Part shown: positions 677 through 52,295 of the stretch, one piece after another
Position numbering within the stretch: position 1 is the stretch's first letter
Layout: every line of letters begins with the position of its first letter
IMG/VR virus record: IMGVR_UViG_3300008107_010192
Location: 11,507 to 75,506 of that record
Strand: one strand, 5' to 3'
DNA from: a virus
Taxonomy: Duplodnaviria > Heunggongvirae > Uroviricota > Caudoviricetes
DNA length: 64,000 nt
Position numbers and translations under genes: made by a program
The notes under the pieces: generated by a model
What the model saw: only the letters and a program-made list of their open reading frames with translations
Databases searched by the model: none
Told to the model about the DNA's origin: nothing

Positions 677-1351
677 TTAAATTATATTTTTAATTTGTCT
701 CTTGTTATTTAATATATCTATTAAAAATTCTGAAAATTCATAGTGGGAGTCCTCGCACCAATGACCATCGTCTACCTCTCCATTGGTTTCTTGTTTTATG
801 TTTCTATATTTTTTAGATAAAATAATCCCACATTTTGACAGGTCTGAACACCATGACCAATGAATTATTTTATTTTTAAGAGAAAAATTAATCAATTTCA
901 TCCAGTTACATATTTCTAGTACGTAAGGGAAATTCGATCTATTAATTAGTAATTCTTGTATTGTTTTTTCCGAGATAAACTCAAATGTCTCAATTTTTTT
1001 ATGTGCAAAAAATCCGTTTTCGTTACCTGGTTCAGGATTGAAATGTCCCCACTGATCTGACTTATTTACTAATCTAAACCTACTTTGATTAGTCCAACCA
1101 AAAATTAAAATATCCCCTTCCTTAATTTTATCAACAACTTTACAAAACTCCTCTAAAATATGCGAGTTATCAACACCTCCCAGTCCTAAATTTATTAAAT
1201 TTAAACCAAGTTTCTCAGCAATAATCTCACCATAAACTTTCGGGACATATCCCTTATATTCAATGTATTTTTGTCTCCAGTGTATTGTTGATCTTTCCGG
1301 GGGGTAAAAATAATCGGTAAACGAATCCCCAAAGGTCCACAGATTATTCAT
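677..1351 (-). CDS. SGNH/GDSL-like hydrolase (paralog family member 1)
   Basis: N-terminal WTFGDSFTD (GDS block I), GLGGVDNS (block II-like), C-terminal DDGHW (DxxH block V-like). Paralogous to 3417, 4558, 13734, 17125, 22025. Confidence 0.5.
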   Translation of the reverse strand: MNNLWTFGDSFTDYFYPPERSTIHWRQKYIEYKGYVPKVYGEIIAEKLGLNLINLGLGGVDNSHILEEFCKVVDKIKEGDILIFGWTNQSRFRLVNKSDQWGHFNPEPGNENGFFAHKKIETFEFISEKTIQELLINRSNFPYVLEICNWMKLINFSLKNKIIHWSWCSDLSKCGIILSKKYRNIKQETNGEVDDGHWCEDSHYEFSEFLIDILNNKRQIKNII

Positions 1352-1893
1352 CAGATCATTGTTTTATTTTTTTCTTGTCTTGTTGTTAATTTAATTGTTA
1401 CATCGGATATCTCGATAGTATGATCTAGCTCTATAATAAAGTTTAAAATTTTAAACAAATCCTCGAATTTGAGTTTATTAAAATTCGCACCAAACATTTT
1501 ATTATTCTCCATTGTACTTGGGTTAAAATTAATAACTCTAACTTTTTTATACGGATTGGCAATATTTAATGTCTGTGATAAATTTATTAGGTGTTTTTTA
1601 TTTGAGACATATAGAGGACTAAAACATCCGTCCTCGTGTACTGCGGACGTTCCAAAATTTATTATTGTTTTTTCTAAATCCTTCCATTTTTCGAATAGTT
1701 CAAAAAAAACCAAGGATTGCTTCACATCTTTACTATATGCATGATTTAAAAATACATCGCATGAAGCTACCTGCGATAATATAGTGTCAATTTCTTCTCT
1801 TAGATCTATTTTAATTATATCGTGGGTCTTTCCCCACATAAGCGAAGCGTAATTGCCAAAACCGTCTGAAGTACCTGATATTGCTATTTTCAT
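1351..1893 (-). CDS. short NAD(P)-binding Rossmann / SDR-like protein (tentative)
   Basis: N-terminal MKIAISGTSDGFGNY resembles the SDR glycine-rich TGxxxGxG motif. Only 180 aa and the catalytic YxxxK is unclear. Confidence 0.3.
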   Translation of the reverse strand: MKIAISGTSDGFGNYASLMWGKTHDIIKIDLREEIDTILSQVASCDVFLNHAYSKDVKQSLVFFELFEKWKDLEKTIINFGTSAVHEDGCFSPLYVSNKKHLINLSQTLNIANPYKKVRVINFNPSTMENNKMFGANFNKLKFEDLFKILNFIIELDHTIEISDVTIKLTTRQEKNKTMI

Positions 1894-2393
1894 ATTAATT
1901 TCGAATTTCCTATTTGTAAATCATTCTTATTTAAAAATAATATAAGGGACCATCTCTCACCTCCTAATATTTTTTTCACTTCATGGTCCCTATCACTTTT
2001 CATTGTATAAATTGTCCCAGTAACTTTAGGAAGTATTTCTAAAGGATTATATGCAATGAATTCTCCACCATCATAACTTTCATTTAAACAAACACCTATA
2101 TTTAAAATTTGATCAGGATGCGTTGTCGAATCATTATGTTTAGCAAATTCATTACCAGCCAAATAACGATGCAAATATATTTCTTGCATTTCATTTATTT
2201 TATTTTTTGAATATTCATCTAAAAGAAATTCTTTCAGTCGATCAAATATCCACTGGGTGTTACTATTTCTAAGTACAACATGATAATAGTAATTAAAATC
2301 ATTTCTTTTAAATAATGATGATGAGTGTTTAGGTTTAAAAGTATTTGATAGATTAATTATCTTATTACATTCTTCTATTGAAAATGAAATCAT
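1890..2393 (-). CDS. 2OG-Fe(II) oxygenase (prolyl-4-hydroxylase-like)
   Basis: HPD (HxD) ... RDHEV (distal His) ... RWS (RxS 2OG-binding) arrangement; DGGEF double-strand beta-helix signature. Confidence 0.6.
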   Translation of the reverse strand: MISFSIEECNKIINLSNTFKPKHSSSLFKRNDFNYYYHVVLRNSNTQWIFDRLKEFLLDEYSKNKINEMQEIYLHRYLAGNEFAKHNDSTTHPDQILNIGVCLNESYDGGEFIAYNPLEILPKVTGTIYTMKSDRDHEVKKILGGERWSLILFLNKNDLQIGNSKLI

Positions 2394-2881
2394 ATTAATT
2401 TTTTTTTATTCATTATGTCGGTTCTTAATCGTTCAGAACTATTCTCGTCAAATAGATCTTCATAATATTGAATTGGTATTTTTAATTTATCAGACAATTC
2501 CTGTAAATCTTGACCCATTTTTATTAAAAGTTCTCTTGATTTATCAATCGTTTCTACTGGTGGTGCGACATATTCATATGGGGTTCCGGAATGATACCCA
2601 TTTCGAATATTGTGATAAAGGTAAGAGTATGATTCGAGATGATTTTTAAAATTTTTTCGATTTAATAATATCACATCATCAAATTTTTTTGATAATTCAA
2701 AATTATTCTCGTGCTGATGTATTATTGTTTTAACAACAACGTTATTCATATCATCGTCATATAAAAAACGATCACTACCGTCAAACGGCTCAAAGATTGC
2801 TCTAAATTCTCTTTCTTTCGAAATTTTATGTAATAAAGATGTAGATCCCGTTCTGGGTAATGATATTATTAAAATTCTCAT
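2390..2881 (-). CDS. sulfotransferase-like protein (Stf0/Sulfotransfer_3-like, tentative)
   Basis: N-terminal ISLPRTGSTSL matches the 5'-phosphosulfate-binding loop PRSGTT. Downstream LNRKNFKNHLES fits the RxxxxxxxS 3'-phosphate-binding motif. Shorter than typical at 163 aa. Confidence 0.45.
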   Translation of the reverse strand: MRILIISLPRTGSTSLLHKISKEREFRAIFEPFDGSDRFLYDDDMNNVVVKTIIHQHENNFELSKKFDDVILLNRKNFKNHLESYSYLYHNIRNGYHSGTPYEYVAPPVETIDKSRELLIKMGQDLQELSDKLKIPIQYYEDLFDENSSERLRTDIMNKKKLI

Positions 2882-3420
2882 ATTAATCTTTTATTGTCAT
2901 ATAATTTAAGATATTTAAAATCTGTATTAGTCATCCAAACATTTAAAGCGCATCTAACCCCAGTCGTGACAGGCATAACCCCATGGTATATTTTACTTCC
3001 ATCAAAAGATATGGACTGTCCTATTTTTAACAAATGTTTTTGTGAATCGTTTATGTTTTTTGATTTTGATAATATAAATCTCCCATCTTCAAAATTTTCG
3101 CTTAAAACTATTACTGTAGTTAGCTGTGAGGTTGAATCCAAGTGTAAATCTAATCTTCTACTATCGTAATATTTGGTAATACTTATATTAAAATCTTCAA
3201 TTTTAAAATCTTTAAAATTAAACCACAATTTAAATTTTTCTTCTTCAAAATTTTTTATGAACCTGTCAAATATCAATTTATTAAATCCTAAATCGGAAAT
3301 TCTTTTACAATCCCAAACCTCGGATGGATTATAATTAAATTTTTTACCCACCCTATCTGCATATTCAATAATTGAATTACATTCCTCACCTCCAAAGAAA
3401 TTGTTTATCGAATAGTTCAT
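2878..3420 (-). CDS. 2OG-Fe(II) oxygenase
   Basis: HLD (HxD) ... IYHGV (distal His) ... VRCAL (Arg) in jelly-roll spacing; paralog of 1890 and 4052. Confidence 0.55.
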   Translation of the reverse strand: MNYSINNFFGGEECNSIIEYADRVGKKFNYNPSEVWDCKRISDLGFNKLIFDRFIKNFEEEKFKLWFNFKDFKIEDFNISITKYYDSRRLDLHLDSTSQLTTVIVLSENFEDGRFILSKSKNINDSQKHLLKIGQSISFDGSKIYHGVMPVTTGVRCALNVWMTNTDFKYLKLYDNKRLI

Positions 3421-4052
3421 AATATTTTTTTATCCTTTATATCCTCCACAAATTCTACAACGGGTTCTTCTATTTCTAATAATCCATGAATTATTTTATA
3501 CATTTCGTAACATCCTTTAGGTCCTGGATGAAAATCTATTTTTTCTCCAACTCCTTCTTCCCAATTGGAAGTTACCTTAATAAGTGTTACAAAGTCAGAG
3601 GTAGGAATGGCGAATTGTTCACTCCATGTAATAAACACTGGATTATATATTTTTAACCATTTTTGGAGATTTTTTAAAAATTTAATGTCATTTTCCCTAA
3701 CACCGTTTATCCAATTATTACCTTCAGTGAGTCTTAAATCATCTAATTTTTCGGCAAATTTACTATCCTTATAATATTGTGGCGATCTGTACTGGTTATT
3801 TAAATATAGTTCTTTTTTATCCCCATAATACCTTCCGGGTAACCTTCCAGGGTCAGTAAATACAATAACAATTCTATCTCCCTCCATATATTCATCTAAA
3901 TTACCTAATTGAAAAATTATTGAGGAGTTATCAGCCCCAAGTTTACCATGTTTATAAACTTCGTAGTGTTTTGATAAATAATATCTCCAATGGTATTTTG
4001 GTATGTGCCAATCAACAAAAGAATCCCCAAAGCAAAATAATCTCGGTTTCAT
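3417..4052 (-). CDS. SGNH/GDSL-like hydrolase (paralog 2)
   Basis: N-terminal LFCFGDSFVDW, GKLGADNSS block; same family as 677. Confidence 0.5.
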   Translation of the reverse strand: MKPRLFCFGDSFVDWHIPKYHWRYYLSKHYEVYKHGKLGADNSSIIFQLGNLDEYMEGDRIVIVFTDPGRLPGRYYGDKKELYLNNQYRSPQYYKDSKFAEKLDDLRLTEGNNWINGVRENDIKFLKNLQKWLKIYNPVFITWSEQFAIPTSDFVTLIKVTSNWEEGVGEKIDFHPGPKGCYEMYKIIHGLLEIEEPVVEFVEDIKDKKIL

Positions 4053-4555
4053 TAAATTAAAGACGTTCTTTTTTTATTAAACATTATAACTAAAACCCTC
4101 CTTTGTCCAGATTCTAACTGTGTAACTTGGTGAACCTGGTTGTTTCCCTCGAAATTAACATACTGTCCAATTTCTGTAAAATTTACATCCTCTCCATCAA
4201 TTATTAATCTTCCTCCCACAAATTCATTCGATAACAAAATTAACGTGGTCTGTAAAACAAAATACTTATCTCTGTGAGGTTTTGTTAAGTTTCCTTTATC
4301 ATATATTAATTCATAGAAAAAATCTATTTCATATTCAGGTTTGCCAAATTTTTCAACAATAAATGAATTAAACTTGCTATCGTGCATCCCATAATATTTC
4401 ATTGATGTCAGGATTAGTGCATCCTCGCCTTTGATAACTATATAGGGATGCTTATATTTTAAATTTTCATATTCTAAAGGATTCATTCCCCCATTTTCCG
4501 AAAGTGCTTGATTGATGTAATCGATCTCTTCGCTATTTAAACAACCAATATCCAT
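4052..4555 (-). CDS. 2OG-Fe(II) oxygenase
   Basis: HRD (HxD), GGRLII, VHQV (His), RRVLV (Arg). Confidence 0.55.
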   Translation of the reverse strand: MDIGCLNSEEIDYINQALSENGGMNPLEYENLKYKHPYIVIKGEDALILTSMKYYGMHDSKFNSFIVEKFGKPEYEIDFFYELIYDKGNLTKPHRDKYFVLQTTLILLSNEFVGGRLIIDGEDVNFTEIGQYVNFEGNNQVHQVTQLESGQRRVLVIMFNKKRTSLI

Positions 4556-4557
4556 AG

Positions 4558-5376
4558 TTATATCAAGATGTTAATTTTTCCTTTAGTCTTTTCCGATATG
4601 ATTTTATTTTCTCCAATAAAACGGTATATTTCATCGGAAATTAGTTCATATCCAAGCTTATTTGGATGTACACCAACAAGGTTAATTGGGTTTTTAAAAT
4701 TCTCCCAAATACTTTTTTTATCAAAACTGGTTAAAAAGTCCCTAAATGTTTCTTTGCGGAATCCCCAATAGTGCCTAGTGTCGATCAAATCGGTTTTATC
4801 AATTTCCCCTATAATATTTTTTGGCAACATCATATCGAATCCATCGCAAAACAAATATCTAATACCCAAATTTTTAAACATATATTGCAAATACAATAAA
4901 TAACCCTGGTTGACTATGTTATAATAATTTTCGTTGTATAAATTAACCGTGTACCATTCCTTATAGTCGATTTTTAATTTATTATAAATTTTATTTTCCC
5001 CATTTGAGCTCAGTATATGATCGTATATGTATTTTTTGTCTAGATGTCTTTTACTCCATGAATGCCATTCATTATCTGGCGGAAAAAATGGCAATTCTTC
5101 CCTTAAGGGGGAAGACCACATTATAATCACTAGATCATTCTCTTTAATCCTACCAGTATCTATACATTTACAAACGCAATTAAATATGAATCGATTATCT
5201 GATCCACCTACTCCGTAATTTTGGAGGTCTATTTTTAATTTTTCTGCTAATTGTTTTGGCCAAGAATATTTGCTCCGAATTTTTGTTTTTTCCTCTAAAC
5301 TACTTACCGCATTCTCTTCTGCTAAATCTCCACCAACACCCTCCGTCCAGCTATCCCCGAATGTATATAATTTCAT
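4558..5376 (-). CDS. SGNH/GDSL-like hydrolase (paralog 3)
   Basis: YTFGDSWTEGVGG (block I), YGVGGSDN (block II/III), GVHPNKLGYELI (block V HPN..G). Confidence 0.55.
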   Translation of the reverse strand: MKLYTFGDSWTEGVGGDLAEENAVSSLEEKTKIRSKYSWPKQLAEKLKIDLQNYGVGGSDNRFIFNCVCKCIDTGRIKENDLVIIMWSSPLREELPFFPPDNEWHSWSKRHLDKKYIYDHILSSNGENKIYNKLKIDYKEWYTVNLYNENYYNIVNQGYLLYLQYMFKNLGIRYLFCDGFDMMLPKNIIGEIDKTDLIDTRHYWGFRKETFRDFLTSFDKKSIWENFKNPINLVGVHPNKLGYELISDEIYRFIGENKIISEKTKGKINILI

Positions 5377-5975
5377 AACAGGTTTTTTTTAAACATCTTA
5401 TTGATTTCTCTTTCTCTTACCCAAATAACTAAAATATATTTTACACCATCCACAATTGGTAAACCAGCATGTAATGATTTTTTATTTAGTGTTCTATCCG
5501 GGTTTAAATTATTCCACACCAGCAAATCCCCCTGATTTCCTTTTATTTTAATTTTTTTCAAAGGAAATTCAGTTTCTCCCCCGATATAATCATCATTTAA
5601 ATAAAATATTCCGGTTATTAATCGATCACCGCTTTCCCCATTAGGTATATTCTTTGGGTCTCCGTAGCAGTCATAATGTGGCTTGTATTCTCCCCCAATT
5701 CCATATCTTATAAAGGATACCGGGGTTTCTTGCTGATTAATGGTTGTTTTTGTTTTTTCTGAGAATATTTTACGAACTTTTTTTAGTAATTCGGATTCAT
5801 TTCCATATACAGCAATTTCAGCTTTTCTATATTTTATATCTGATTCCACATCCCCATTAATTGTTCTCGCAGTTTTAAATTCGTTAAATTCTTTTATTAA
5901 TTTTTCACAATCCATTTTATCTAATACTTCTGCATGTAATTGATATAAAAGGTTATTATTTTCAAAGTATCTCAT
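5373..5975 (-). CDS. 2OG-Fe(II) oxygenase, prolyl 4-hydroxylase-like
   Basis: KPHYDCYGDP (HxD), GGETEF, LHAGLPIVDGVKYILVIW (distal His plus basic residue). Start moved to internal Met (MRYFENN), which gives an ATGA overlap with the stop of the upstream gene; the ORF-track start 6038 would overlap 67 nt. Confidence 0.55.
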   Translation of the reverse strand: MRYFENNNLLYQLHAEVLDKMDCEKLIKEFNEFKTARTINGDVESDIKYRKAEIAVYGNESELLKKVRKIFSEKTKTTINQQETPVSFIRYGIGGEYKPHYDCYGDPKNIPNGESGDRLITGIFYLNDDYIGGETEFPLKKIKIKGNQGDLLVWNNLNPDRTLNKKSLHAGLPIVDGVKYILVIWVREREINKMFKKNLL

Positions 5976-6463
5976 ATAATAGTTTTTAATTTTCCCCAGT
6001 TCTTTATGTCCCCGTATCTTATATAAAATAACGCACAATATCTAACCCCTCTTTTTACTTTTTTCACTTCGTGATATTCGCTTGATTTATAATGATATAT
6101 TTCACCCATCGGTTTCAAGTATGGTTTATCGTTTAAATAAAACTCCCCACCTTCATAATCATCATTTAATAATATATTAATATTATAAATAAAATCTCTA
6201 CTGAGTGAATTAGTGGCGGACCCCGAATCTATATGTTTTTGAATTAGGTCACCCTCAATGTATTTTAATATACCTACATTAATTGTACTAATGTCCAAAT
6301 TTAAATACTCACTACAATATTGAATAATTAAATTTTTAATTTCACCGTCTTCGACTTCAAATAAAGTGGAATAGTATGAACCACCAGTCTTCACCCTTTT
6401 CCATAAATTTTTTGATTCTGATAACTCAATCAAATACCTACAATGACTATTTGAGATTTTCAT
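5972..6463 (-). CDS. 2OG-Fe(II) oxygenase
   Basis: QKHIDSG (HxD), YEGGEFYL, YHEVKKVKRGVRY (His and Arg). Confidence 0.55.
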   Translation of the reverse strand: MKISNSHCRYLIELSESKNLWKRVKTGGSYYSTLFEVEDGEIKNLIIQYCSEYLNLDISTINVGILKYIEGDLIQKHIDSGSATNSLSRDFIYNINILLNDDYEGGEFYLNDKPYLKPMGEIYHYKSSEYHEVKKVKRGVRYCALFYIRYGDIKNWGKLKTII

Positions 6464-6466
6464 TAT

Positions 6467-6976
6467 TTAAATTAAATTTTTATAGATTTTAATCTGATCT
6501 ATTTCATTTGTCAATGATCCATAAATTCCAATTCTTTCTGGGGTTGAAAATTCGTCACATAAAAAATCCTCTGTTTTAAAAATTAATAGATCTCCGTCTT
6601 CCAATACTATTTCTTTTATTTCATTTTTTAATCTTAATGATATCTTACTTTTAAAGGATTTTATAAAAAGAATGAATGAATATTTTGATTTTGGATTTAT
6701 CCCTCTTTTTAACTGCTTATCGAATTTTATTTCTTGGTCCAATTCCTGTTCCTGTATATAAGCGAAGGTGTTTTTGACATATACTTGAAAATCCTCTAGA
6801 GTTTCTTTTTCTAGGTTTTGTAATATGATTTCAATTATTTTTAAAGTTGTGTCCGATTCTAACCACAGGATTCTCTTATTAAATTCGGATTTTACGTGAT
6901 GTGAATTCAGTATAATATCATATTTTAATAGTTCCAAATTAATTTTTGGCTTAACGATTTTATAAAACATGATCAA
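6467..6976 (-). CDS. hypothetical protein, degenerate paralog of the neighbouring oxygenase-like gene
   Basis: Shares the GDLLIFKTEDF segment with 6973..7686 (GDLIFKTEDE) but lacks the metal-binding His/Asp residues. Confidence 0.3.
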   Translation of the reverse strand: MIMFYKIVKPKINLELLKYDIILNSHHVKSEFNKRILWLESDTTLKIIEIILQNLEKETLEDFQVYVKNTFAYIQEQELDQEIKFDKQLKRGINPKSKYSFILFIKSFKSKISLRLKNEIKEIVLEDGDLLIFKTEDFLCDEFSTPERIGIYGSLTNEIDQIKIYKNLI

Positions 6977-7629
6977 GAATTTATATGATTTTTGAAGACG
7001 ATCCTTCTATTTGTTTCCCTAATAGAATTAAAATCATAATTAATATTCGTTGTGTATACTATTCTATCAGATTCTGAACCTAATGTAAGGGTTGGCATAT
7101 GTTGTAAATCACCAGGAAAAAATAGAATATCGCTTTCTTTTGGAGTGAATGAATGTAATTTTTCGTCTTCTGTTTTAAAAATAAGATCCCCTTCTCCATC
7201 TTTAAGATCCGAAGGAATTTGTATATAAAAAACATAGGTCCATTGCGTTTTCAAATTTGTTCTATTCGATGATTCTATCCAGTCATGGGTGTGCATCCAT
7301 TCCATTTTAAAACCCGGAACTTGTATGTATATCCAACTGGATTTTATAAATCTGTCTATTTTGCAAGACAATTTTTTCCTTAAAAAATCCAATGCCTGAT
7401 TATCTACAGATCTAAATTCATCGCATCCAATATGGACGTCCAATGAATTTTGTACCCTGTATGTCTCGTTTTGGTATAAGGATTCGTTTTGATATATTCT
7501 AGTTAAAAATTCTTTTTTCGAAAACTGATTATCGTACCTTGTCTTGTAGATTGTGTATTTTTCTGACAGCTTATATTGTTCTGAAAAGTTTATTTTTTTC
7601 ATATTTCCCATATTTAGTAAACAGTTCAT
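6973..7629 (-). CDS. cupin/2OG-oxygenase-like protein (divergent)
   Basis: HTHDW and LQHMP His-containing segments flank a beta-rich core. Start is uncertain: ORF-track start 7686 overlaps the upstream gene by 116 nt and internal Mets lie at 7629/7611/7602. Confidence 0.3.
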   Translation of the reverse strand: MNCLLNMGNMKKINFSEQYKLSEKYTIYKTRYDNQFSKKEFLTRIYQNESLYQNETYRVQNSLDVHIGCDEFRSVDNQALDFLRKKLSCKIDRFIKSSWIYIQVPGFKMEWMHTHDWIESSNRTNLKTQWTYVFYIQIPSDLKDGEGDLIFKTEDEKLHSFTPKESDILFFPGDLQHMPTLTLGSESDRIVYTTNINYDFNSIRETNRRIVFKNHINS

Positions 7630-8005
7630 TTCCACGATATATTTTTTTCGTGGCAATCGATAAATTTCTATCAATATTCGGTTCACTATCCCAAGAACAG
7701 CTGTTTACCCAGTGCATGGGTGTTTTAAATATCCAATGACAATTTTTTTCTAGATTGACATTAAACGTCCATTCGTCACCAATCTTAGAAAATTCGTACA
7801 TATCATAAACATGGATCTTAACGTTATAATCAAGGGAATTTAATTCTGATTCAGTTAATTGGTAAATCCCTGAATCCCCCTTCCAGTTAACGAATATTTC
7901 TTCCCCCTCATCGATATCTCTAAGAGCAAAAATACCTACTCCGTGTATATTGCTCGGCGACATTTTAACGTTCACATGATTTTTGATGTATTCATATGCA
8001 GTCAT
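7571..8005 (-). CDS. SET-domain protein (putative protein lysine methyltransferase)
   Basis: IHGVGIFALRDIDEGEEIF (GxG..FA..I..GE.I SET N-region), VNSCSWDSEPN (NHSC.PN-like), RGNELFTKYG (EEL..YG C-flank), ~140 aa like viral vSET. Confidence 0.5.
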   Translation of the reverse strand: MTAYEYIKNHVNVKMSPSNIHGVGIFALRDIDEGEEIFVNWKGDSGIYQLTESELNSLDYNVKIHVYDMYEFSKIGDEWTFNVNLEKNCHWIFKTPMHWVNSCSWDSEPNIDRNLSIATKKIYRGNELFTKYGKYEKNKLFRTI

Positions 8006-8478
8006 TATATGAAATTTTTTGGTGTGGTTCTGAATTGAGATCCATAGTTTCCTAATATCTCTTCACCTTCTTTTATCTTTCTAATTGCAACAGGTGCCAC
8101 ATTATTATTGCTATCCACGTTACAGTTTTTCAATCCACTGTTCATAAACATTTTTGGCCAAATGTATATCCAGTGATAACCTCGCTCTAAGGGGAAAAAT
8201 ATTTTTCCATATTCCTTAGGTATGATTTGTTCGACCCCATTTTTATCAACAAACCACATTTTATTGTCAAAGGTTTCGTATAAATTTTTTTGGAGCTTAT
8301 CAGGGAGTGTGAATAATTCTTCCTGTGTAATTGAATATATCCCACTCTCCCCATGCCAAAGATCAAAAACAGATTCACCTGCTTCAATATCTCTAATGGC
8401 AAAAAATCCAACGCCCTCTACAGAACTCGGCTTAAGTATTGCTGTGACCTTTTGCTGAAGATATTCTAAAGGAGTCAT
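8005..8478 (-). CDS. SET-domain protein (paralog of 7571..8005)
   Basis: VEGVGFFAIRDIEAGESVF, MNSGLKNCNV, IKEGEEILGNYG; directly tandem to the other SET gene. Confidence 0.55.
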   Translation of the reverse strand: MTPLEYLQQKVTAILKPSSVEGVGFFAIRDIEAGESVFDLWHGESGIYSITQEELFTLPDKLQKNLYETFDNKMWFVDKNGVEQIIPKEYGKIFFPLERGYHWIYIWPKMFMNSGLKNCNVDSNNNVAPVAIRKIKEGEEILGNYGSQFRTTPKNFI

Positions 8479-8642
8479 AAATATCCACAGAATTTAAGAA
8501 TGTTTTAACTTAATCAGTTCTACAAGTTTTGACAATATAGTGAAGGTTTTCTGTTTTTTATCCTCGCTGATCGATGAAGCTTGTCTTAATTTAAGATCAA
8601 CAGTATTAATTGACTTATATTTTGTTGGTTTTATCATGATCT

Positions 8643-10517
8643 TTATATTTTTGGTATTCCTCTGTTATGTGCTAAAATTCCATTAGCAAAAAAGTTATGA
8701 TTATTTTTAATATCCTGTAAATTATAAACTAGAGTGGTTTCTTCTATCATGTTTATGTTCACAATTTTTGAGCTCCCCTTTAATAACTTTAAACAGTCTC
8801 CAATCTCTATCTTACCGATTTTAGATTCTATAGTATACAGTTTATTAGATAGATTATTATCGAATGAAGACCATCCTTTATCTTCAACATATACTGGGTG
8901 ATCTATGGTACATTTTAAAAATTCACCATTCTCTAATTCATACTCAACAATTCGGTCCACTTTTTTACTATAAACAGCATTTACTGTATTGGCCTCAATA
9001 TTATTTGATAGCATGTTAAGTGTCAGTACAGAATCACCAGCAATAATATCCTCTATATTTTTTGTAACACCTTCCGAGATGGTTATTTTCGTGCCTGCAA
9101 CGAAACATGGTGCATTGTGTGTTACGAATGAATTGACAGGAGTTGATCCTGCTATTATGTAGGTGTCAGTATCCTCAACATCAATTTCAACTAAGCTGAA
9201 ATTGTTTTCATTAATTATTAATATTTCAGAATTTGTGACCTGCGCTAATGATCCATCATAATCTACTAAGTAATCTGTCGTTGTTTTTATGTTTACAGAT
9301 TGTTTCCATACGATCGAGTCCATTCCCTCGTCATAAACTAAGAAAGATTTATGAACCGACGTATAAATTGAATCCTCGTTATTATTTACTGTTATATTAG
9401 ATAATGTTTTATTCAACAATTCTTTACTATTTTTATATATAACAGTAGATGTCGTTAGATTAGATTCCGGTGGTAAGGTGTTTCCTGATATTTGCCAAGT
9501 TGGATATGTGAAGTCGTCTTCCGTTAAATCTGTTCCCCCTATATAATAAGATTTTATTTCTTCCCCGACAGAAATGTTCCCTATTTCTACCTCAGTATCA
9601 TCAGATTTAATTATTAAATGCGTGTTTAAAATGCCATCAATTATACCATCATATTTAATAAAATTTGTTGCAAACTCGTAATAATGTTTATTGTCTATCT
9701 TATTAATGTATTGGGCTTCATTATAAATTGATTCGACAGGTAATTCAAATGCCGCACTTTCCTGAAATTGTCCTACGTGAATTAGGGACAGATCACCTCC
9801 GTAAATAATCGAGAAAGTTCTCACTGTGGAAACTTTATTATCTGAAACGGTTTGTGAACTTATGTGATATTTTTGTATTACGTTATTTTCTGTTGCCTTT
9901 TCGCTGATGAATACTCCCCATCGGCTTTGGTCTGTATCTTCAGTGGATTCGCTGCCTATTTTATAAAAATCTATAAGGGAATGTTCCGCATCGCTTATGT
10001 TTTTTATTAAGCAATCTGGCAAATTTCCCGAATTAAAATCCCTAGAAATCGTATCGTATTGTCCGAGTGAGGATGAATGATAAAACTCCGCAACGCTATC
10101 CTGCTCATTATAATCACAGAATAGCCTAAGTGTGTTTAATGTTCCCTTAGCATACTCGCTATCAAAAATGGCTGATTCGTCATACGCCATTCTCAGAACG
10201 AATAAGTCTGAAGCATCCTCAACAGGAGTCGGGTATATTCTGTTTGATTGCTCTTTTATCTCCTTAAATTCTGTGATAAATGGAGCGTTCGATGTCAATG
10301 ATTCGGAAAGTTTATCGACTATATACTGATGTATGTTCGGCTTATGTACTACCGTTACTCTTGTGATGTTATTGCTCTCTAAAACCGAGATAAGGTCGTT
10401 AAAATCCAGATAGACTAAATTATTAGTCGAAATAGTTGTGTCTGTATTTACTTCCAATAGTCTTAAATTGCCAACGCTATCCTCAATAAAATCCGCGGAA
10501 AAAAAGGTTCCTTTCAT
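8643..10517 (-). CDS. large protein with C-terminal Hint (hedgehog/intein-like) autoprocessing domain
   Basis: C-terminal ~140 aa: CFVAGTKITISEG (Hint block A Cys) ... TIDHPVYV (block B TxxH) ... NHNFFANGILAHN (blocks F/G) then RGIPKI and stop. Hint-region coordinates about 8664..9091. Confidence 0.6.
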   Translation of the reverse strand: MKGTFFSADFIEDSVGNLRLLEVNTDTTISTNNLVYLDFNDLISVLESNNITRVTVVHKPNIHQYIVDKLSESLTSNAPFITEFKEIKEQSNRIYPTPVEDASDLFVLRMAYDESAIFDSEYAKGTLNTLRLFCDYNEQDSVAEFYHSSSLGQYDTISRDFNSGNLPDCLIKNISDAEHSLIDFYKIGSESTEDTDQSRWGVFISEKATENNVIQKYHISSQTVSDNKVSTVRTFSIIYGGDLSLIHVGQFQESAAFELPVESIYNEAQYINKIDNKHYYEFATNFIKYDGIIDGILNTHLIIKSDDTEVEIGNISVGEEIKSYYIGGTDLTEDDFTYPTWQISGNTLPPESNLTTSTVIYKNSKELLNKTLSNITVNNNEDSIYTSVHKSFLVYDEGMDSIVWKQSVNIKTTTDYLVDYDGSLAQVTNSEILIINENNFSLVEIDVEDTDTYIIAGSTPVNSFVTHNAPCFVAGTKITISEGVTKNIEDIIAGDSVLTLNMLSNNIEANTVNAVYSKKVDRIVEYELENGEFLKCTIDHPVYVEDKGWSSFDNNLSNKLYTIESKIGKIEIGDCLKLLKGSSKIVNINMIEETTLVYNLQDIKNNHNFFANGILAHNRGIPKI

Positions 10518-13762: not shown

Positions 13763-14519
13763 TTATATACTGTCCAGTTTCGTTTGGGTGATGATCGTTA
13801 ACTAATTCTTCCCAAAATTTTGTATCATAATTTTTATATCTGTCAGAATATCTTAAGCATTCATTTGATGTAAACCTCTGAGCGTCGATATTAAATTCAT
13901 CATCATCTAGCGGAAAGTAAATAATTCTGCTTGGATGAGTAATTGTTTTAATGACATTTTCTTTCCTTTTTTGCGTGGAATTTACATCTTTAGGATGTAT
14001 AGGGTTTAAAAACCAATATTTAACTGTCGCACCTATTTTATTTTCCAAATAATCAAAAACAGGAAGTACGTTTTTAAATCCAAGAATTAATAATTCAATT
14101 CTAAAATCTAAAACGAAATCTACGTATTTTTTCATTTTTTCTTCATCATAAAATTTTTCACTCCTGAAATAATCAATCTGATGCCAATCAAAATCTATCA
14201 ATACGTCATTTATTTCAAATATGTCTTTACTAGACCACGATTCTCTTACGTGGTTTTCGTTAACAAAAGGTACAGGGAACCTATCTGGGTATGTAAACTC
14301 GAAAACCACTAAATCCCCCTTCTTTATTTTTTCCATCTGCCTGAACAGCTTTACCGTAGATTCAAAATTGGATTGACCACTAAACCCGTTATTTACAAAA
14401 TTGAATCCAATTTTTTCGGCTAATATTTCTGGCCAAAATTTCAAGCCGTATTCTTTTTCGTGATGTGGAGAATGAGTCCAACTACATCCGTAAGCCCATA
14501 GTGTGTTTTTTGTAATCAT
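13734..14519 (-). CDS. SGNH-like hydrolase paralog (GCS variant)
   Basis: LWAYGCSWTHSP in place of GDS block I, NGFSGQSN, NDHHPNETGQYIIA (block V). Confidence 0.45.
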   Translation of the reverse strand: MITKNTLWAYGCSWTHSPHHEKEYGLKFWPEILAEKIGFNFVNNGFSGQSNFESTVKLFRQMEKIKKGDLVVFEFTYPDRFPVPFVNENHVRESWSSKDIFEINDVLIDFDWHQIDYFRSEKFYDEEKMKKYVDFVLDFRIELLILGFKNVLPVFDYLENKIGATVKYWFLNPIHPKDVNSTQKRKENVIKTITHPSRIIYFPLDDDEFNIDAQRFTSNECLRYSDRYKNYDTKFWEELVNDHHPNETGQYIIAENILLSL

Positions 14520-16413
14520 CTAGAATTTCTATAGATTTGAACCATAACATTTTACCAAATTTTCCATCGTGTAATGGAGACATATTTAGAAATATCAGGC
14601 CTGTTATAAATTTAATCTTATCGAGATCGAATCCGTTTTTCCTGATCCATCCCTCATATTCAGATCTAAACTTAATTAGATTCTTTGAGATATGATATTC
14701 ATATTTAATAGAATAAGATCCTTCAAAGTATGTGATATTACTGTCATCTTTCATTAAATTGTATGGGATTATTAATCCGCCATAAAACTTAGAAAGATCG
14801 TAATAAATGTCTCCAGATTCTACATTTTCTCCAAAGCAGTCTCTCCAGTCTATGTAATAGTATTCGCCATCTTCCGATAATATCATATTATCAAAGTGGA
14901 GATCACCATGAAAATTAGAATAGAAAGGATTCTCGTAAAGACAGTCAAATATTTTTTCATCAGATAATATAAGATCCAAAGATGGTCTTTTAATTTCGTT
15001 TATTTCATGATCAGAAACAAAATAACTTTCTCCATATTTAGCAAGAAATGATTCTAGTCTTTTATGGGTTTTGTCGACATAAAACTTTTTAAGATCTTCT
15101 ATGTTTGCAGGGATTGTCTCCTTGGTGAGGAATTCCAGCTTTGTCAAAAACCTACTAAAATCCCCCAGTTCCCCGCGATCGTATAAAGTTTTACCTTCTA
15201 TCCAATCGTAATAAAGAAAATTCCCAGCAACATTGAAATTTGGGGGAACCAAGCCTCTTAAAATTTCTCCTCTAATTTTCCTTCTTTCTAGCAGATCTCT
15301 ATCTTGTGTAAACTTTAAAAATTTACCCCCGTCCTTATAGGTTATTTCTCCTATGTCTTTTTTCAAAGATAGCGGTTTATCATTAAAGTACTGTCTAGCT
15401 TTATCTAGATCGTCTAGATTTCCGGTATCTAGCCATTTTAACTTTTTTGCCTTTAGACTTGTATAGACTTGAGGTGATTCAAATGCAGAAACTAATTCAC
15501 CGCTTTTAATATTTTCTTTAAGCTCTTTCCAGAAAGTGGAGTAATCTGATATTCCTCCGAAACCAACAAATGCTAGATCGTATCCGTCAGTACTTTTGTT
15601 AACGAAAGATGTTATATTTTCTTTATCGTCCATCTTCACCGTGGAGTATTTTTCTGGATATGATGTTGAATGAACCCCTAACCAGTTACCGTTTATTCCA
15701 GGGATCGGAGAATCTATGATACAATCTCCCATTATAAAATAAAAAGGTCTTTGAAGATGCTCGGAGCACAACAGAGCGCTTGTACCTGGCCCAGTTTGCG
15801 AAGGATCATAATTCTCGACATTTACGAATGTAAATTTGTGATCTGGATAAACTAGATTACAATACTCTTTGACGGAATCTCCCTTGTATCCAATAGCTAT
15901 GATAAAGTCATATTCCTTAGGGAATTTTTCTATTATGTAGGATATGATAGCCCGATTGTTTACCGGCAATAAAGTTTTATTTATGTTGTCTGTTAATTTT
16001 TTTAGACGGCTACCTAAGCCTGCACATAATATTAAAACCGCGGGAGTTTTATGCTCGCTTTCGATCTTTCCATCAGGTCTATTTGTATCATCCTCCACTC
16101 GTATTACATCGTCGACCTCCGGGGTAGAAACTTCTTGCATTATCAGGTCGGTCAAAGCAATTACCCTGTGTTTTTTAGGAGGAATTACGTTATAGTATTG
16201 ACCTGGGCCGTACACCTCCTTAACAATTTCACCTTGATCATTCTCCAGCCAAATTTCTGCTTGTCCCGATATGATATAGTTAGTTTCTTTTTTAAAGTTG
16301 TGATACTGTAAAGATGTTTTATATCCCTCGTTTATATAGATTCTTTTATAACAATAAGAATCATTAAGTTCTATCCATTCTTCTTTACCCCACGGTTTAT
16401 AAATTGTTTTCAT
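14482..16413 (-). CDS. tri-domain fusion: cupin (mannose-6-P isomerase type-II-like) + sugar-1-phosphate nucleotidyltransferase + APH/choline-kinase-fold kinase
   Basis: N-term YKPWGKEEWIELND...SLQYHNFKKETNYIISGQA (cupin); middle VLILCAGLGSRLKKLT...KTLLPV (NTase G-x-G-x-R-L motif); C-term FHGDLHFDNMIL...YYIDWRD (Brenner HGDxxxxN and D of DFG). Confidence 0.6.
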   Translation of the reverse strand: MKTIYKPWGKEEWIELNDSYCYKRIYINEGYKTSLQYHNFKKETNYIISGQAEIWLENDQGEIVKEVYGPGQYYNVIPPKKHRVIALTDLIMQEVSTPEVDDVIRVEDDTNRPDGKIESEHKTPAVLILCAGLGSRLKKLTDNINKTLLPVNNRAIISYIIEKFPKEYDFIIAIGYKGDSVKEYCNLVYPDHKFTFVNVENYDPSQTGPGTSALLCSEHLQRPFYFIMGDCIIDSPIPGINGNWLGVHSTSYPEKYSTVKMDDKENITSFVNKSTDGYDLAFVGFGGISDYSTFWKELKENIKSGELVSAFESPQVYTSLKAKKLKWLDTGNLDDLDKARQYFNDKPLSLKKDIGEITYKDGGKFLKFTQDRDLLERRKIRGEILRGLVPPNFNVAGNFLYYDWIEGKTLYDRGELGDFSRFLTKLEFLTKETIPANIEDLKKFYVDKTHKRLESFLAKYGESYFVSDHEINEIKRPSLDLILSDEKIFDCLYENPFYSNFHGDLHFDNMILSEDGEYYYIDWRDCFGENVESGDIYYDLSKFYGGLIIPYNLMKDDSNITYFEGSYSIKYEYHISKNLIKFRSEYEGWIRKNGFDLDKIKFITGLIFLNMSPLHDGKFGKMLWFKSIEILDDYKKHTMGLRM

Positions 16414-17128
16414 GATATTGATCTTGATTATTTCCCCAATCCATCGTTTTTTGGAATATCGTATTTATAGATATCTCTTCTTTATTTAACTGTCTAGAGT
16501 TAGCCCTTACAGTAACGACAGATGTTCTTGGAATTTTTTTAATTTTTATTTCACTTAGTAAAATGTGTTTGGCTAAGTGATGATGCATGGAGCCGTTACA
16601 TTCGTTTCCGTCTAATCTTTCCGGTATATTATCAATTAATTTTTCGATTAGATCATATTTACCAAAGAAAAAAATATCCTGTATGAATAATTCTTCCCCG
16701 TTATTTCTAATCTCTTCTAACCCGTATACAGATCCCTCTCTTAAATCCTCATCCGAATTTATATTCTCAAAATCGAAATTAAAATCAAAATAATTATCAG
16801 GTCTTGTTAGCATGATATAATCATATTTTATACCGCTTTTTTTGATCATTTTAAGCCCGGATTTCCAGTGGAATATCATCTTTTCTGGATTGGTTAATTC
16901 AGAAAACACATCATCTAATATTAAAACATTTGCGTCTTTAATATGATCTAATATTCTTTTTTCTGTGACTTCCTCGTCGATTATGATGTCTAGTTTTTTA
17001 TTTTTTTGCTTGGATCTAGACCATGTTGAAAAATAAACCTCGCAATCAAACTTGCTTAAAAAATTCCAAGAAGTAACAGCAATATCAAATTCCCTATACA
17101 TCCCATAAACCAAAATTGCAATTTTCAT
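16397..17128 (-). CDS. GT-A-like putative glycosyltransferase (MKIAI family paralog)
   Basis: MKIAILVYGMYREFD...YFSTW and HWKSGLKMIKKSGIKYDYIMLTRPD resemble the W.K......YDYI.(D/R)xD core of GT34/nucleotide-diphospho-sugar transferases. Confidence 0.3.
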   Translation of the reverse strand: MKIAILVYGMYREFDIAVTSWNFLSKFDCEVYFSTWSRSKQKNKKLDIIIDEEVTEKRILDHIKDANVLILDDVFSELTNPEKMIFHWKSGLKMIKKSGIKYDYIMLTRPDNYFDFNFDFENINSDEDLREGSVYGLEEIRNNGEELFIQDIFFFGKYDLIEKLIDNIPERLDGNECNGSMHHHLAKHILLSEIKIKKIPRTSVVTVRANSRQLNKEEISINTIFQKTMDWGNNQDQYHENNL

Positions 17129-17784
17129 ATGATTTTTACCTTTGATTTTATTTCATTTTCTATGTATTGGCAAAAATCCCTATGACCCTTGAATGACCAG
17201 TGATGGTTTACTATTTCTCCCTTTGTTGCATTGACTATTAATTCAAATTTTTCCCAGAGACTTTCTACATCCCAGATATAGCAGAGATTTACTCCTCTAT
17301 CTTTTAGTAGTCTTTCTCTCAAAAAATTCAGTCTAAAATCGTGTCTGATAGAATAAGCTTTCTGTGTTGCAAATTCTATTGAAAACATTTTTATGGTCTC
17401 TATCTGCTCGTTGGTAAATAATCCAACGGTTGCATCTTCAAACCATTTTTGTACGTCTTTTTCCCCTCCCCTATAAACTATAGATTTGACTTCCGGTGAA
17501 TCATTTTCTTTCGGAAAGTCAAATCTGTGTGACCAGGTTTTACCTATTATTACTATATCGTCCTTAGAAATATCCTCCCAGTTTTTTATTATAGTATCAA
17601 TAATAGTATCGTTAGACACCCCAGGTAAACCTTTATTTTGTAGAGCATAGTTTATTTTTCTGGATAATAATTTATTCCAAGAAAGGTCATCATCTTTTAA
17701 CCTATATCTTTGATAATATAGATCATGATCTAATGTGCCGTCTCCGTATGTAAAAGAACATCCAAATGTCCAGATTTTATTCAT
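17125..17784 (-). CDS. SGNH-like hydrolase paralog (GCS variant)
   Basis: IWTFGCSFTYGDG, KGLPGVSNDTI, NHHWSFKGH. Confidence 0.45.
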   Translation of the reverse strand: MNKIWTFGCSFTYGDGTLDHDLYYQRYRLKDDDLSWNKLLSRKINYALQNKGLPGVSNDTIIDTIIKNWEDISKDDIVIIGKTWSHRFDFPKENDSPEVKSIVYRGGEKDVQKWFEDATVGLFTNEQIETIKMFSIEFATQKAYSIRHDFRLNFLRERLLKDRGVNLCYIWDVESLWEKFELIVNATKGEIVNHHWSFKGHRDFCQYIENEIKSKVKII

Positions 17785-19562
17785 ATTAATATTTTATCTA
17801 TGACCTCTGTTTCACCTCCGGGGAACACCGCTATATCTTCGAACAGAACCTCATTGTCCCCAAGTCCCCCTAATTTTAATTGTTTTTTGAGAGTTATAAA
17901 ATTCCTAAATTTGCATATCTGAAAATTAAGAGGGGTAGTTTGATTCTTTACTCCAATCTCTTTTAAATAGTGATAAAAAACTAACTCAGGTATCAGGTGG
18001 TTTCTGCTTTCTTCAAACGTTCTAATGTCTATACTTGGTAGGTGCCTATAAAAATCGCAAATTTTATCGAACGTTAAAGAATCTGAAAACCAAAACACAT
18101 CACCAATTGCAAAATGAGGGTAAACATCAATTTTTCTATTATGTATAGAAAATATAGTATTTGGTTTAACAGTTGATAAAATTTCGATTAAATCAAAAAC
18201 CTGTCCCCATGGAACATATTGATCGTACCGTAATCTGATACAAACATCATATTCGAAATTATTTTCTATCTCGTATTGTCTTTTCAATTCGCACGATCTC
18301 ATCACTGCATAAAACTGGTTTGCACACCAAGTAATGGGCGGACCTTCATTTTCTGGATATCTCTCCTCTGCAATGTCAATAACATCCTGGTTTACTCTTT
18401 GATTTTTTTCAAAATCCTCAATTAGATATTTTTTCGGTTTGTATATTTTAATTATTTCATTTAATTTATCATCGTCGTACGGAGTTACTCTATTATTGGC
18501 GGTTACATCCAATATTGGTCTGGATTCGCTTTCAAAATTCCAAGCATGGCAGAAAAAGTCGACAGTGCTATTAGGATCACTTTCAACTTTATTTTTTAGC
18601 TTTATTATGTTGTGGTAGCATTTTTCATAAGTTCTGAATTGACCACTTAAGCAGATAGCAATTTTCATAGTTCTTAATTTTTTTAACACATTGGGTGAAA
18701 ACCCGGTCTTTTCAAAAATTTCTTTTTTGAATTTCAAAAGTAGATTGTATCCGATGTGTTTGACGTTTGATAATTTTTGAAACTCGTGATTATATAATAT
18801 TCTATTGATTTCAACACACTCCCTAAAATTATCCACTGGATGATAACCCAGGGAGAATTCTCTAAAGATTGTCCACTTATACTCCATTTCATTTAGAAAC
18901 TCTATAGATTCTATATTATTTTCCTTGAGATAATCATCAAAAAACACGTGATAAAGATCTTTGCTTTTATCTGTTGTGATAATATAGTTATGAAACAATG
19001 AAGCCTTATCCATAACTGAGGAATTTGACATAAATACCACATCATGCAGCATTCTGCTTGAAGGATTCTCAAATTCTGTTATTGTGTCGACTAAAAAAAT
19101 ACCATTTTTGATAAAAGAAATGTTGTCGTGAATTATATTTTTTAATTTAATCGACGGATCATATATGCAATCCATTCTCATTTTTATTACAACGTCGTAT
19201 TGAAAATTGTTTTCCTCTTCGTATTTCTTTTTTAAATTAACACTTTCATACCAGCTGTACCACATCGGGGAATTTGATGTCCCCTTTTTTAGAGACAAAT
19301 CGTAATAGTCCTCGTAAATATCAACCTTAGTTTTTTTTGGTTTGTATATGTTATTAATTTTTATGTAATCATTTAGTTCTACCTTCTTGATATGGGTATA
19401 TTCATGTTCGGGTCTTTCGTCCCCAAAAAATCTTTTACCGTCATTAATATCCCACGTGTGTATAAAATAGTCGGCCTCACATCCCTCAATAAAATTGAGT
19501 ATGTTGATGGAAGAATCAACTGCCCTTCTTATTTGACCACTAAAGCAAATCGCAATTTTCAT
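17781..19562 (-). CDS. protein with two tandem copies of the MKIAI GT-A-like domain
   Basis: MKIAICFSGQIRR...YFIHTWDI and again at residue ~300 MKIAICLSGQFRT...FFCHAWNF; each half ends in YDVVIKMRMD / YDVCIRLRYD. Confidence 0.3.
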   Translation of the reverse strand: MKIAICFSGQIRRAVDSSINILNFIEGCEADYFIHTWDINDGKRFFGDERPEHEYTHIKKVELNDYIKINNIYKPKKTKVDIYEDYYDLSLKKGTSNSPMWYSWYESVNLKKKYEEENNFQYDVVIKMRMDCIYDPSIKLKNIIHDNISFIKNGIFLVDTITEFENPSSRMLHDVVFMSNSSVMDKASLFHNYIITTDKSKDLYHVFFDDYLKENNIESIEFLNEMEYKWTIFREFSLGYHPVDNFRECVEINRILYNHEFQKLSNVKHIGYNLLLKFKKEIFEKTGFSPNVLKKLRTMKIAICLSGQFRTYEKCYHNIIKLKNKVESDPNSTVDFFCHAWNFESESRPILDVTANNRVTPYDDDKLNEIIKIYKPKKYLIEDFEKNQRVNQDVIDIAEERYPENEGPPITWCANQFYAVMRSCELKRQYEIENNFEYDVCIRLRYDQYVPWGQVFDLIEILSTVKPNTIFSIHNRKIDVYPHFAIGDVFWFSDSLTFDKICDFYRHLPSIDIRTFEESRNHLIPELVFYHYLKEIGVKNQTTPLNFQICKFRNFITLKKQLKLGGLGDNEVLFEDIAVFPGGETEVIDKILI

Positions 19563-36838: not shown

Positions 36839-37220
36839 GGGGGTGTATTTGGCACTTGACAGACATTGGTAGTTCTTTGAGATGATGCAGGCCGAGTTAG
36901 TATTGGAAACTCGTTAATCACCTATGCAAACAATAAACGACGTAGAATTATCTACAATGACCTTCGAAGACGCTATGTCTTTCGTTGGTGCTGATTACGC
37001 AATAGCTGCCTAATCCCTCCCGCACACATCGTGGGGCTTAAAATAGAATGTGAACCCAGGTGGAATATGACTGAACCCGAAATCGAGTCATCTGAATTTG
37101 GTAGTTTAATCAGCCAACTATAAACTACATATTTTGTTTGTAAAGAAAAACAAGCTAAGCCTGTGAATGAGTTTCTTTTAACAGATGGACTGGACACCGG
37201 TTCGATTCCGGTCACCTCCA
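36839..37220 (+). ncRNA. ssrA: tmRNA (SsrA-like transfer-messenger RNA)
   Basis: 5' GGGGGTG pairs with 3' CACCTCC, giving a 7-bp acceptor with a G3:U70 wobble (Ala identity). T-arm ACCGG-TTCGATT-CCGGT precedes it; discriminator A then CA. Internal reading frame ends ...GADYAIAA-TAA (a YALAA-type degradation tag). About 380 nt. Confidence 0.65.
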
Positions 37221-37236
37221 CAAAAATTAATTTAAT

Positions 37237-52130: not shown

Positions 52131-52217
52131 GGAGGCTTGGCAGAGCGGTCGAATGCGGCAGTCTTGAAAACTGCTTTACGGGTAACTGTAACCGGGGTTC
52201 GAATCCCTGAGCCTCCG
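52131..52217 (+). tRNA. tRNA-Ser (anticodon TGA)
   Basis: GGAGGCT/AGCCTCC acceptor, anticodon arm GCAGT-CTTGAAA-ACTGC, long variable arm, T-loop TTCGAAT. Confidence 0.8.
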
Positions 52218-52222
52218 CAATT

Positions 52223-52295
52223 GCCTCCTTAGCTCAGCTGGTAGAGCGACGCACTTGTAATGCGTAGGTCATTGGTTCGATCCCGATAGGAGGCT
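52223..52295 (+). tRNA. tRNA-Thr (anticodon TGT)
   Basis: GCCTCCT/AGGAGGC acceptor, D-arm TAGCTCAGCTGGTAGAGC, anticodon arm ACGCA-CTTGTAA-TGCGT, T-loop TTCGATC. Confidence 0.8.

Follow-up and report, generated by a model that had tools for sequence, protein, structure and literature searches.

Organization of the locus

The gene occupies positions 8643..10517 on the minus strand of the window, which is the whole stretch of 64,000 nucleotides that was analysed, and it encodes 624 amino acids followed by a TAA stop codon. The protein and the reading frame that follows it feature the following elements.

8643..10517, minus strand: whole ORF, comprising an ATP-grasp-like domain, a degenerate Hint domain, a BIL-type Hint domain and a 6-residue tail
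9642..10517, minus strand: predicted ATP-grasp fold, circularly permuted, of the GspS/eukaryotic GS/YgiC type (about residues 1-292, up to 296)
10437..10517, minus strand: putative Mg2+-binding beta-hairpin motif D-x12-E-x-N, MKGTFFSADFIEDSVGNLRLLEVNTDT (residues 1-27)
9114..9635, minus strand: degenerate Hint domain, aligned by hhalign with the active Hint domains of the family (residues about 293/295-468)
9108..9113, minus strand: linker Ala469-Pro470; Pro470 immediately precedes the active Hint domain (position -1), with the predicted scissile bond Pro470|Cys471
8664..9107, minus strand: motif-complete A-type BIL/mini-intein-like Hint domain with Cys471, Thr537-Ile-Asp-His540 and His617-Asn618, lacking a homing endonuclease (residues 471-618)
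8646..8663, minus strand: tail Arg619-Gly-Ile-Pro-Lys-Ile624, with Arg at +1, no Cys, Ser or Thr, and a conserved Lys near the end
8494..8637, minus strand: conserved 47-residue ORF that starts 5 nt past the stop codon in a different frame

The C-terminal 154 residues read APCFVAGTKI...KCTIDHPVYV...NNHNFFANGILAHN-RGIPKI and are followed by TAA. At least 23 contigs, which come from independent samples, encode an identical protein of 624 residues. The end of the ORF is genuine and the block motifs quoted in the initial annotation are real. That annotation described a 470-residue N-domain upstream of the Hint domain; a region of this extent is present, but it consists of two domains, an ATP-grasp domain and a degenerate Hint domain. 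Overlooked in it were the ATP-grasp fold, the degenerate Hint domain, which bears an invariant His-Asn pair as well, and the tandem Hint arrays of relatives. The best explanation of the whole is a cytoplasmic protein of three modules from a large uncultured marine myovirus-like phage.

The window is phage DNA and contains 21 tRNAs and a tmRNA, collagen-repeat fibre genes with an S74 chaperone, glycan-synthesis genes and 2OG-Fe(II) oxygenase paralogues, and two SET-like genes lie directly downstream of the gene. Related contigs of 240-326 kb encode Kyano_Gp96, peptide deformylase, HSP20, PhoH and UvdE, a gene set which points to T4-like marine cyanophage relatives. Searches with 25 kb and 8 kb of the window by megablast and blastn found no related phage. 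A tblastn search of 50,697 phage genomes with the whole protein and with a distant member returned intein matches to the Hint part and none for the N-domain. In PHROGs, the Hint region alone had a match, to phrog_21587, and a comparison of ten diverse members of the protein family with PHROGs yielded none for the N-domain. An exact-peptide scan of cellular genomes returned nothing, and of 185,579 species genomes a Cyanobium MAG alone gave a match, on a contig of 2.8 kb; the family is in effect viral.

The N-terminal ATP-grasp domain

The ATP-grasp region was modelled alone with a deeper alignment and reached a pLDDT of 93. The model has the circularly permuted arrangement of GspS and eukaryotic GS, and its structural relatives are the circularly permuted ATP-grasps followed by the classical LysX/ArgX, TTLL, RimK, GshB and TTL folds (6.3-5.0). 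Residues 1-27 (FSADFIEDSVGNLRLLEVNTDT) resemble the Mg2+-binding hairpin of D-Ala-D-Ala ligases and biotin carboxylases (ADFMLDADGNPYFLEVNT), a motif that lies near the C-terminus in classical ATP-grasp enzymes. A profile of the N-domain compared with PDB sequences gave eight matches, all eight of which are D-Ala-D-Ala ligases or biotin carboxylases aligned at the hairpin, with sub-threshold E values of 0.6-3. The residues invariant across the family in this domain are D9, E22, N24, T25, D119, Y122, K172 and R233, which include the putative Mg2+/ATP motif residues D9, E22, N24 and K172; the hairpin itself aligns only to Ddl and biotin carboxylase, below threshold.

Curated sequence models are blind to this domain, and its membership in the ATP-grasp group is based on fold and motif. 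The Pfam and NCBIfam ATP-grasp models did not match the native N-domain, and the curated ATP-grasp models did not match re-permuted versions of it, the best being RimK at E 0.11. An hhalign comparison with the ATP-grasp_4 protein encoded elsewhere in the window was negative, phmmer of the N-domain against the PDB found nothing, and Foldseek against the viral structures of BFVD gave nothing below E 0.18. The model is best explained as an ATP-grasp of the carboxylate-amine ligase class, which includes glutathionylspermidine synthetase, YgiC and eukaryotic glutathione synthetase. Since the putative Mg2+/ATP motif residues are intact, the domain is probably an active amidoligase.

The degenerate Hint domain and the linker

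The region between the ATP-grasp domain and the linker aligns end to end with the active Hint domains of the family (hhalign probability 98%, E 1.5e-13). Cys1 is replaced by Gly295 and the block-B His by Lys390, whereas block F/G and the pair H467-N468 are retained. Asn468 is invariant and His467 is nearly so throughout the family, including members that have no active Hint domain. Judged from these residues, the degenerate domain should be unable to form an N-terminal thioester, and it keeps a C-terminal His-Asn. The linker that joins it to the next Hint domain was compared in about 180 Hint-bearing homologues and is AP in 118 and SP in 20. In more distant members HN adjoins Cys without a linker, and about 17 cluster representatives have this canonical HN|C junction, in which the Cys is Cys1 of the next Hint domain. 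A class-2 intein reading of the degenerate domain, in which Cys1 is absent and a +1 Cys attacks directly, was considered and rejected as a general rule; HN|C occurs in some members only, the usual junction is HN-AP-C or HN-SP-C, and the Hint-less members have no nucleophile.

The C-terminal Hint domain

Residues 471-618 have the Hint fold and blocks A, B, F and G that define the HINT superfamily. The Pfam models Intein_splicing (E 1.1e-10), PT-HINT and Vint match residues ~470-621 above their gathering scores, and the NCBIfam models for the intein N-terminal and C-terminal splicing regions match as well. The Pfam model Hint (PF01079) falls below its gathering threshold (26.8 vs 29.7). The claim that a Hint domain with all catalytic blocks is present is supported by these matches and by the residues C471, T537-I-D-H540 and H617-N618.

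The same residues are those of class-1 inteins. The position after the terminal Asn, which is Cys, Ser or Thr in class-1 inteins, is occupied by Arg619, and the tail RGIPKI offers no nucleophilic hydroxyl or thiol; trans-esterification of the class-1 type is therefore impossible, as the initial annotation had concluded when it excluded classical splicing. Class-1 inteins are also insertions in a conserved host protein with two functional exteins, whereas the C-extein is 6 residues here and 1-9 residues in homologues. Hog domains have no terminal His-Asn and carry a sterol- or adduct-recognition region; in this protein just six residues follow the Hint domain and HN is invariant, so the hedgehog analogy that had been drawn is weak. 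Nor does a C-terminal toxin domain follow as in PT-HINT proteins, since nothing domain-like is found after the Hint domain.

The A-type BIL class is described by Hint motifs with a terminal His-Asn and no +1 nucleophile, by greater nearness to BILs than to inteins or Hog domains, and by location in a variable region with presence/absence polymorphism. The domain has each of these features, that is, all those of the class that can be tested computationally. A sequence search of the PDB placed BIL2 first (E 1e-11), with the near-identical motif VENNHNFFANGVLAH(N), and 2lwy next (E 2e-9). In the structural ranking BILs also came first, followed by the mini-inteins NpuDnaB (19.0) and gp41-1 (18.9), and the hedgehog Hint domain (1at0) scored 17.2. 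The BIL likeness noted initially therefore stands, and the domain is best termed A-type BIL/mini-intein-like because both rankings put BILs first. The polymorphism takes the form of 0-3 copies on N-domains that are ~65% identical.

All 305 Hint copies that were examined share the block-B residues Thr and His (T537 and H540). Cys1 and the His-Asn pair were part of the rule by which Hint copies were extracted and are 100% conserved by construction. Conservation of Thr and His in 305/305 copies, despite an identity of only ~40% within a protein, argues for selection on Hint activity as judged from sequence.

Copy number and tails across the family

A search of 5.8 billion proteins gave more than 1000 matches, of which the best 120 are full-length homologues of about 624, 770 or 905-928 residues. 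These length classes correspond to one, two and three tandem Hint domains, and a few members have a fourth. At 50% identity, the matches of a full HMMER scan with residues 1-470 fall into 246 clusters; in IMG/VR the family is present on 148 viral contigs, the longest of 326 kb. The Hint copies inside one protein share only ~40% identity, and the copy at a given position has orthologues of its own in other proteins, which indicates that the tandem arrays are old and maintained. Proteins with 0, 1, 2 and 3 Hint domains are interspersed in the similarity space of the N-domain at about 65% identity. Gains or losses of Hint domains have occurred repeatedly, and the core function does not require them.

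Complete Hint-less proteins are 460-490 residues long and stop 1-10 residues past the equivalent of Asn468. Examples are P0174 (...FHN-K) and P0121 (...IVHN-PAPPPKL); the latter is 65% identical to the window protein and is a complete ORF at a syntenic locus with the same downstream 47-residue gene. The 47-residue ORF accompanies both 3-Hint and Hint-less family members, and its distance from the stop codon varies (5, 11 or 4 nt). The Hint-less syntenic homologues, together with the members that have two or three Hint domains, make the domain look dispensable for N-domain function. Deletion of residues 471-618 in silico yields ...THN-AP-RGIPKI, which mirrors the ...VHN-PAPPPKL end of P0121.

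More than 200 homologues, which come from independent samples, close in the same way with HN, Arg or Lys, 0-8 further residues and a stop codon, the protein ends being HN-K, HN-KL or HN-R-x(1-6)-PK[LI]. The residue after the terminal His-Asn is Lys or Arg in 35/35 Hint-terminated cluster representatives. The junctions between Hint domains are ...HN-R[FY]-C... or ...HN-K-C...; Lys or Arg follows His-Asn in most of these linkers, and a few begin with F, Y, T or A. Additionally, the short tails contain Lys in 13/13 Hint-less proteins (chance about 3e-9) and in 35/35 Hint-terminated cluster representatives.

In distant members the His-Asn of the degenerate Hint domain is followed by Cys-rich peptides of 20-200 residues, by a second type of Hint domain ending in ...SGLGDNxxLNxKYxRQ or, in five members, by Peptidase_S74 intramolecular-chaperone domains. 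The last group suggested a virion-fibre protein; this reading does not fit the ATP-grasp enzyme fold and finds no support in the window protein.

Proposed mechanism and alternatives

The explanation that we favour with moderate confidence is that the Hint domain is a self-removing, dispensable BIL-type module on a phage amidoligase-like protein. The most likely chemical steps, as inferred from general Hint chemistry and the literature on BILs, are as follows. The BIL domain would act in cis and remove itself after translation. Cys471 would attack the carbonyl of Pro470, and this N-S acyl shift at Pro470|Cys471, assisted by Thr537 and His540, would form a thioester. Asn618 would then cyclise with the help of His617 and break the Asn618|Arg619 bond. 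The predicted products are a ~52-kDa protein consisting of the ATP-grasp and degenerate Hint domains, a free Hint domain of 148 residues and the tail peptide. The tail may be lost, or it may be re-joined to Pro470 through an amine, either its alpha-amine or that of Lys623, as for the C. thermocellum BIL and Tetrahymena BIL2. With either fate of the tail, the mature protein would resemble the natural Hint-less homologues (...HN-PAPPPKL), and the Hint domain, lying at the very C-terminus, would be either an intein-like passenger that the protein can do without or a switch for maturation.

The -1 residue of the Hint domain is an invariant Pro in the clade of the window protein. Pro at this position disfavours the N-S acyl shift of engineered inteins, and cleavage on the N-terminal side may therefore be slow or subject to regulation. 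BIL domains lack a +1 nucleophile and give mainly N- and C-cleavage products (PMC7664689), and BIL2 splices through the epsilon-amine of Lys to form an isopeptide (PMC8616854). The retention of two or three old tandem copies, ~40% identical and with position-specific orthologues, would be hard to account for if the Hint domains were mere selfish passengers. The tail Lys and the His-Asn of the degenerate Hint domain, which are kept in Hint-less members, point to a function beyond self-removal.

Instead of removing itself, the domain might serve as a conjugation device of the hedgehog or BUBL kind, where an external nucleophile, such as a small molecule or a Lys side chain on a second protein, would resolve the Pro470-Cys471 thioester, so that the N-terminal part is joined to a target with no need of ATP-dependent E1/E2-type enzymes. 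In essence, the initial annotation had the same idea when it proposed that the N-domain could be covalently attached to another molecule or released as an effector. The nearest solved relative, Tetrahymena BIL2, does conjugate ubiquitin-like domains through a Lys epsilon-amine (PMC8616854), the catalytic residues for thioester formation are all conserved, and the conserved Lys-bearing tail could be an internal acceptor. However, complete syntenic Hint-less homologues exist at 65% identity, others have 2-3 Hint domains and the number varies freely; attachment therefore cannot be essential to the function of the family, and a covalently attached effector is disfavoured. Moreover, no sterol- or adduct-recognition region follows the Hint domain, and the terminal His-Asn is conserved although hedgehog-type transfer has no need of it, so we regard conjugation as unlikely. 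Release of a C-terminal cargo is judged quite unlikely as well. Cyclisation of Asn468 by the degenerate Hint domain would free the C-terminal part, which is the BIL domain in this protein, possibly aiding through its downstream thioester, and elsewhere a short Lys peptide, a Cys-rich peptide of 20-200 residues or a Peptidase_S74 domain. The invariant Asn468 and nearly invariant His467, which persist in members with no active Hint domain, the highly variable extensions after this HN, including Cys-rich tails and S74 chaperone domains, and the canonical HN|C junction of about 17 cluster representatives are consistent with such release. Against this, the degenerate domain lacks both the block-B TxxH and Cys1, many tails of only 1-8 residues would be an odd cargo, and the thioester at Pro470 is two residues past Asn468, where direct cooperation is not obvious.

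A more elaborate and decidedly improbable scheme combines these elements into a protein-templated ligation-release system. The ATP-grasp domain would extend or modify the C-terminal Lys tail of its own protein, the His-Asn of the degenerate Hint domain would release the product through a succinimide, and the BIL domains, one to three and rarely more, would be thioester generators or timers that control this release; the neighbouring SET-like lysine methyltransferases and prolyl-hydroxylase-like 2OG oxygenases might be involved. Were this scheme correct, Hint chemistry would serve the production of small peptides or amino acids, or ATP-independent Lys-isopeptide conjugation in infection, and would not be that of a selfish element. 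That the Hint domains are inactive relics, acting as structural or oligomerisation modules without catalysis, is very improbable; Pro at -1, generally unfavourable for the acyl shift, and the presence of one clearly degenerate Hint domain in the family would suit such a loss, but Thr and His of TxxH are kept in 305/305 copies at ~40% identity, and it is the degenerate domain that has the look of relaxed selection. We give practically no credence to a classical intein that has lost its C-extein, or whose C-extein is encoded by the next ORF or masked by a sequencing error or recoding. The NCBIfam models for both intein ends match, but more than 200 homologues share this end, at least 23 contigs encode the identical protein and the stop codon is TAA. 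The downstream 47-residue ORF was rejected as a C-extein supplied in trans; it is in a different frame at a variable gap (5, 11 or 4 nt), starts with MIKP and has neither a nucleophile nor an intein half.

Significance and comparison with known systems

A purely environmental phage family that presents a natural series of BIL copy numbers on the same N-extein is an unusually clean test system. The series addresses whether BILs act by cleavage, amine splicing or conjugation, why Lys or Arg at +1 and the tail Lys are conserved, and how Hint domains decay. With its N-domain, the auxiliary genes of marine phages gain a circularly permuted ATP-grasp family that had gone unrecognised. Compact Hint domains of 148 residues, predicted to need no +1 nucleophile, also hold practical interest for protein engineers.

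The N-domain shares its circularly permuted fold with GspS (2io7), YgiC (7uka), eukaryotic GS (5oet, 2wyo and 1m0t) and the CP-ATP-grasp proteins 3n6x and 3k1t, but it is only 10-16% identical to them and far smaller (about 290 residues). To our knowledge, BIL domains have been recorded in bacteria and at one ciliate locus, and little is understood of what they do biologically. A-type BIL domains were reportedly described by Amitai et al. in 2003 and Dassa et al. in 2004, and 2lwy is the structure of the C. thermocellum domain. Unlike these, the Hint domain described here is encoded by a phage and not by a bacterium, is located at the extreme C-terminus with a C-extein of 1-9 residues, occurs in relatives as tandem arrays of 2-3 (rarely more), has nearly always Lys or Arg at +1, and is preceded by a degenerate Hint domain and a fused ATP-grasp domain. 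BIL2 of Tetrahymena thermophila BUBL1 (PDB 6tmm and 6y75) is flanked by ubiquitin-like domains and serves conjugation, whereas the window protein has the ATP-grasp-degenerate Hint region as its N-extein, a C-extein of six residues and no ubiquitin-like domain, and its Hint module is optional, as the Hint-less homologues show. The Hog domain (PDB 1at0) differs from this Hint domain, which has an invariant His-Asn and just six residues after it. PT-HINT domains of polymorphic toxins are Hint domains that release a C-terminal module; the likeness lies in the Pfam model, which scores above gathering, and in the Cys-rich C-terminal peptides of some distant members, but in the window protein no toxin domain follows, there are no upstream secretion or delivery domains, and the gene lies in a region of phage auxiliary genes. 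Literature searches on tandem Hint domains, cyanophages, intein-like domains and ATP-grasp with Hint did not turn up a description of this architecture, and no such fusion is apparent from the titles and abstracts of papers naming both ATP-grasp and Hint domains. What is new relative to the known systems is the setting, a phage family with tandem arrays of zero to three or more copies on one host protein, together with an adjacent fossil Hint domain that keeps only its Asn and the fusion to an unrecognised circularly permuted ATP-grasp domain.

Gene neighbourhood

The Hint gene is followed on the same strand by a conserved small ORF, a pair of SET-domain-like genes and an array of further genes.

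8494..8637 (-), conserved basic 47-aa ORF (MIKPTKYKSI...LIKLKHS), directly 3' of the Hint gene
8005..8478 and 7571..8005 (-), two SET-domain-like genes
677..7686 (-), array of about 165-270-aa genes following the SET-like pair

The 47-aa ORF is present in 16 of 80 IMG/VR loci as determined by phmmer, and it also lies directly downstream of the homologues with three Hint domains (L002) and with none (L003). The array includes several 2OG-FeII_Oxy_3 paralogues and one GDSL-lipase-like gene. Of the 80 IMG/VR loci, 49 have a 2OG oxygenase resembling the one at 5972..6463 alongside the family of Hint-gene homologues, and 18-20 have SET-like genes alongside it. This co-occurrence could be a sign of functional linkage, or it could simply reflect the cyanophage hyperplastic region.

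Other features of the window

40547..42730 (+), glycosyltransferase-2/radical-SAM fusion protein, 727 aa
43842..45017 (+), classical ATP-grasp_4 protein
14482..20709 (-), more radical SAM/SPASM genes and mannose-phosphate isomerase genes
46184..49315 and 48798..50822 (+), ORFs of collagen triple-helix repeats, in frames that overlap
36839..37223 (+), tmRNA gene (Rfam, 79.5 bits)
52131..53091, 58864..59525 and 60756..61141 (+), tRNA arrays

The fusion and ATP-grasp_4 genes both sit inside a sugar-modification cluster. The collagen-repeat ORFs form a GC-rich island (0.45-0.49 vs about 0.32 in the rest of the window) and are probably fibre genes, because the second ends in a Peptidase_S74 intramolecular chaperone. 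The tmRNA encodes the tag peptide DVELSTMTFEDAMSFVGADYAIAA, and the 21 tRNA genes are found in the three arrays and as single tRNAs elsewhere; the surrounding DNA is AT-rich, with about 30-35% GC. The phage is large and brings its own translation kit of a tmRNA and 21 tRNAs.

Distant homologues and similarity to AXH

Distant homologues outside the window (P0239, P0254, P0246, P0260, P0264, and P0238) feature varied sequence after the conserved His-Asn of Hint*, the degenerate Hint domain. Some carry Cys-rich peptides, e.g. HN-GCKSSVCRYESPCPNWNKVLCSTCTPQQCAAK, and others carry Cys/Trp/Gly-rich regions and a Peptidase_S74 domain. These C-terminal extensions look like releasable cargo.

The Pfam AXH model (Ataxin-1/HBP1 module, PF08517) matches residues 472-576, within the Hint domain at 8664..9107 (-), with 51.7 bits (gathering cut-off 33), and PDB AXH domains are among the phmmer matches of the Hint domain (E 5e-5 to 1e-3). 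This sequence similarity suggests an unappreciated relationship between AXH and Hint domains, or else a contaminated AXH model.
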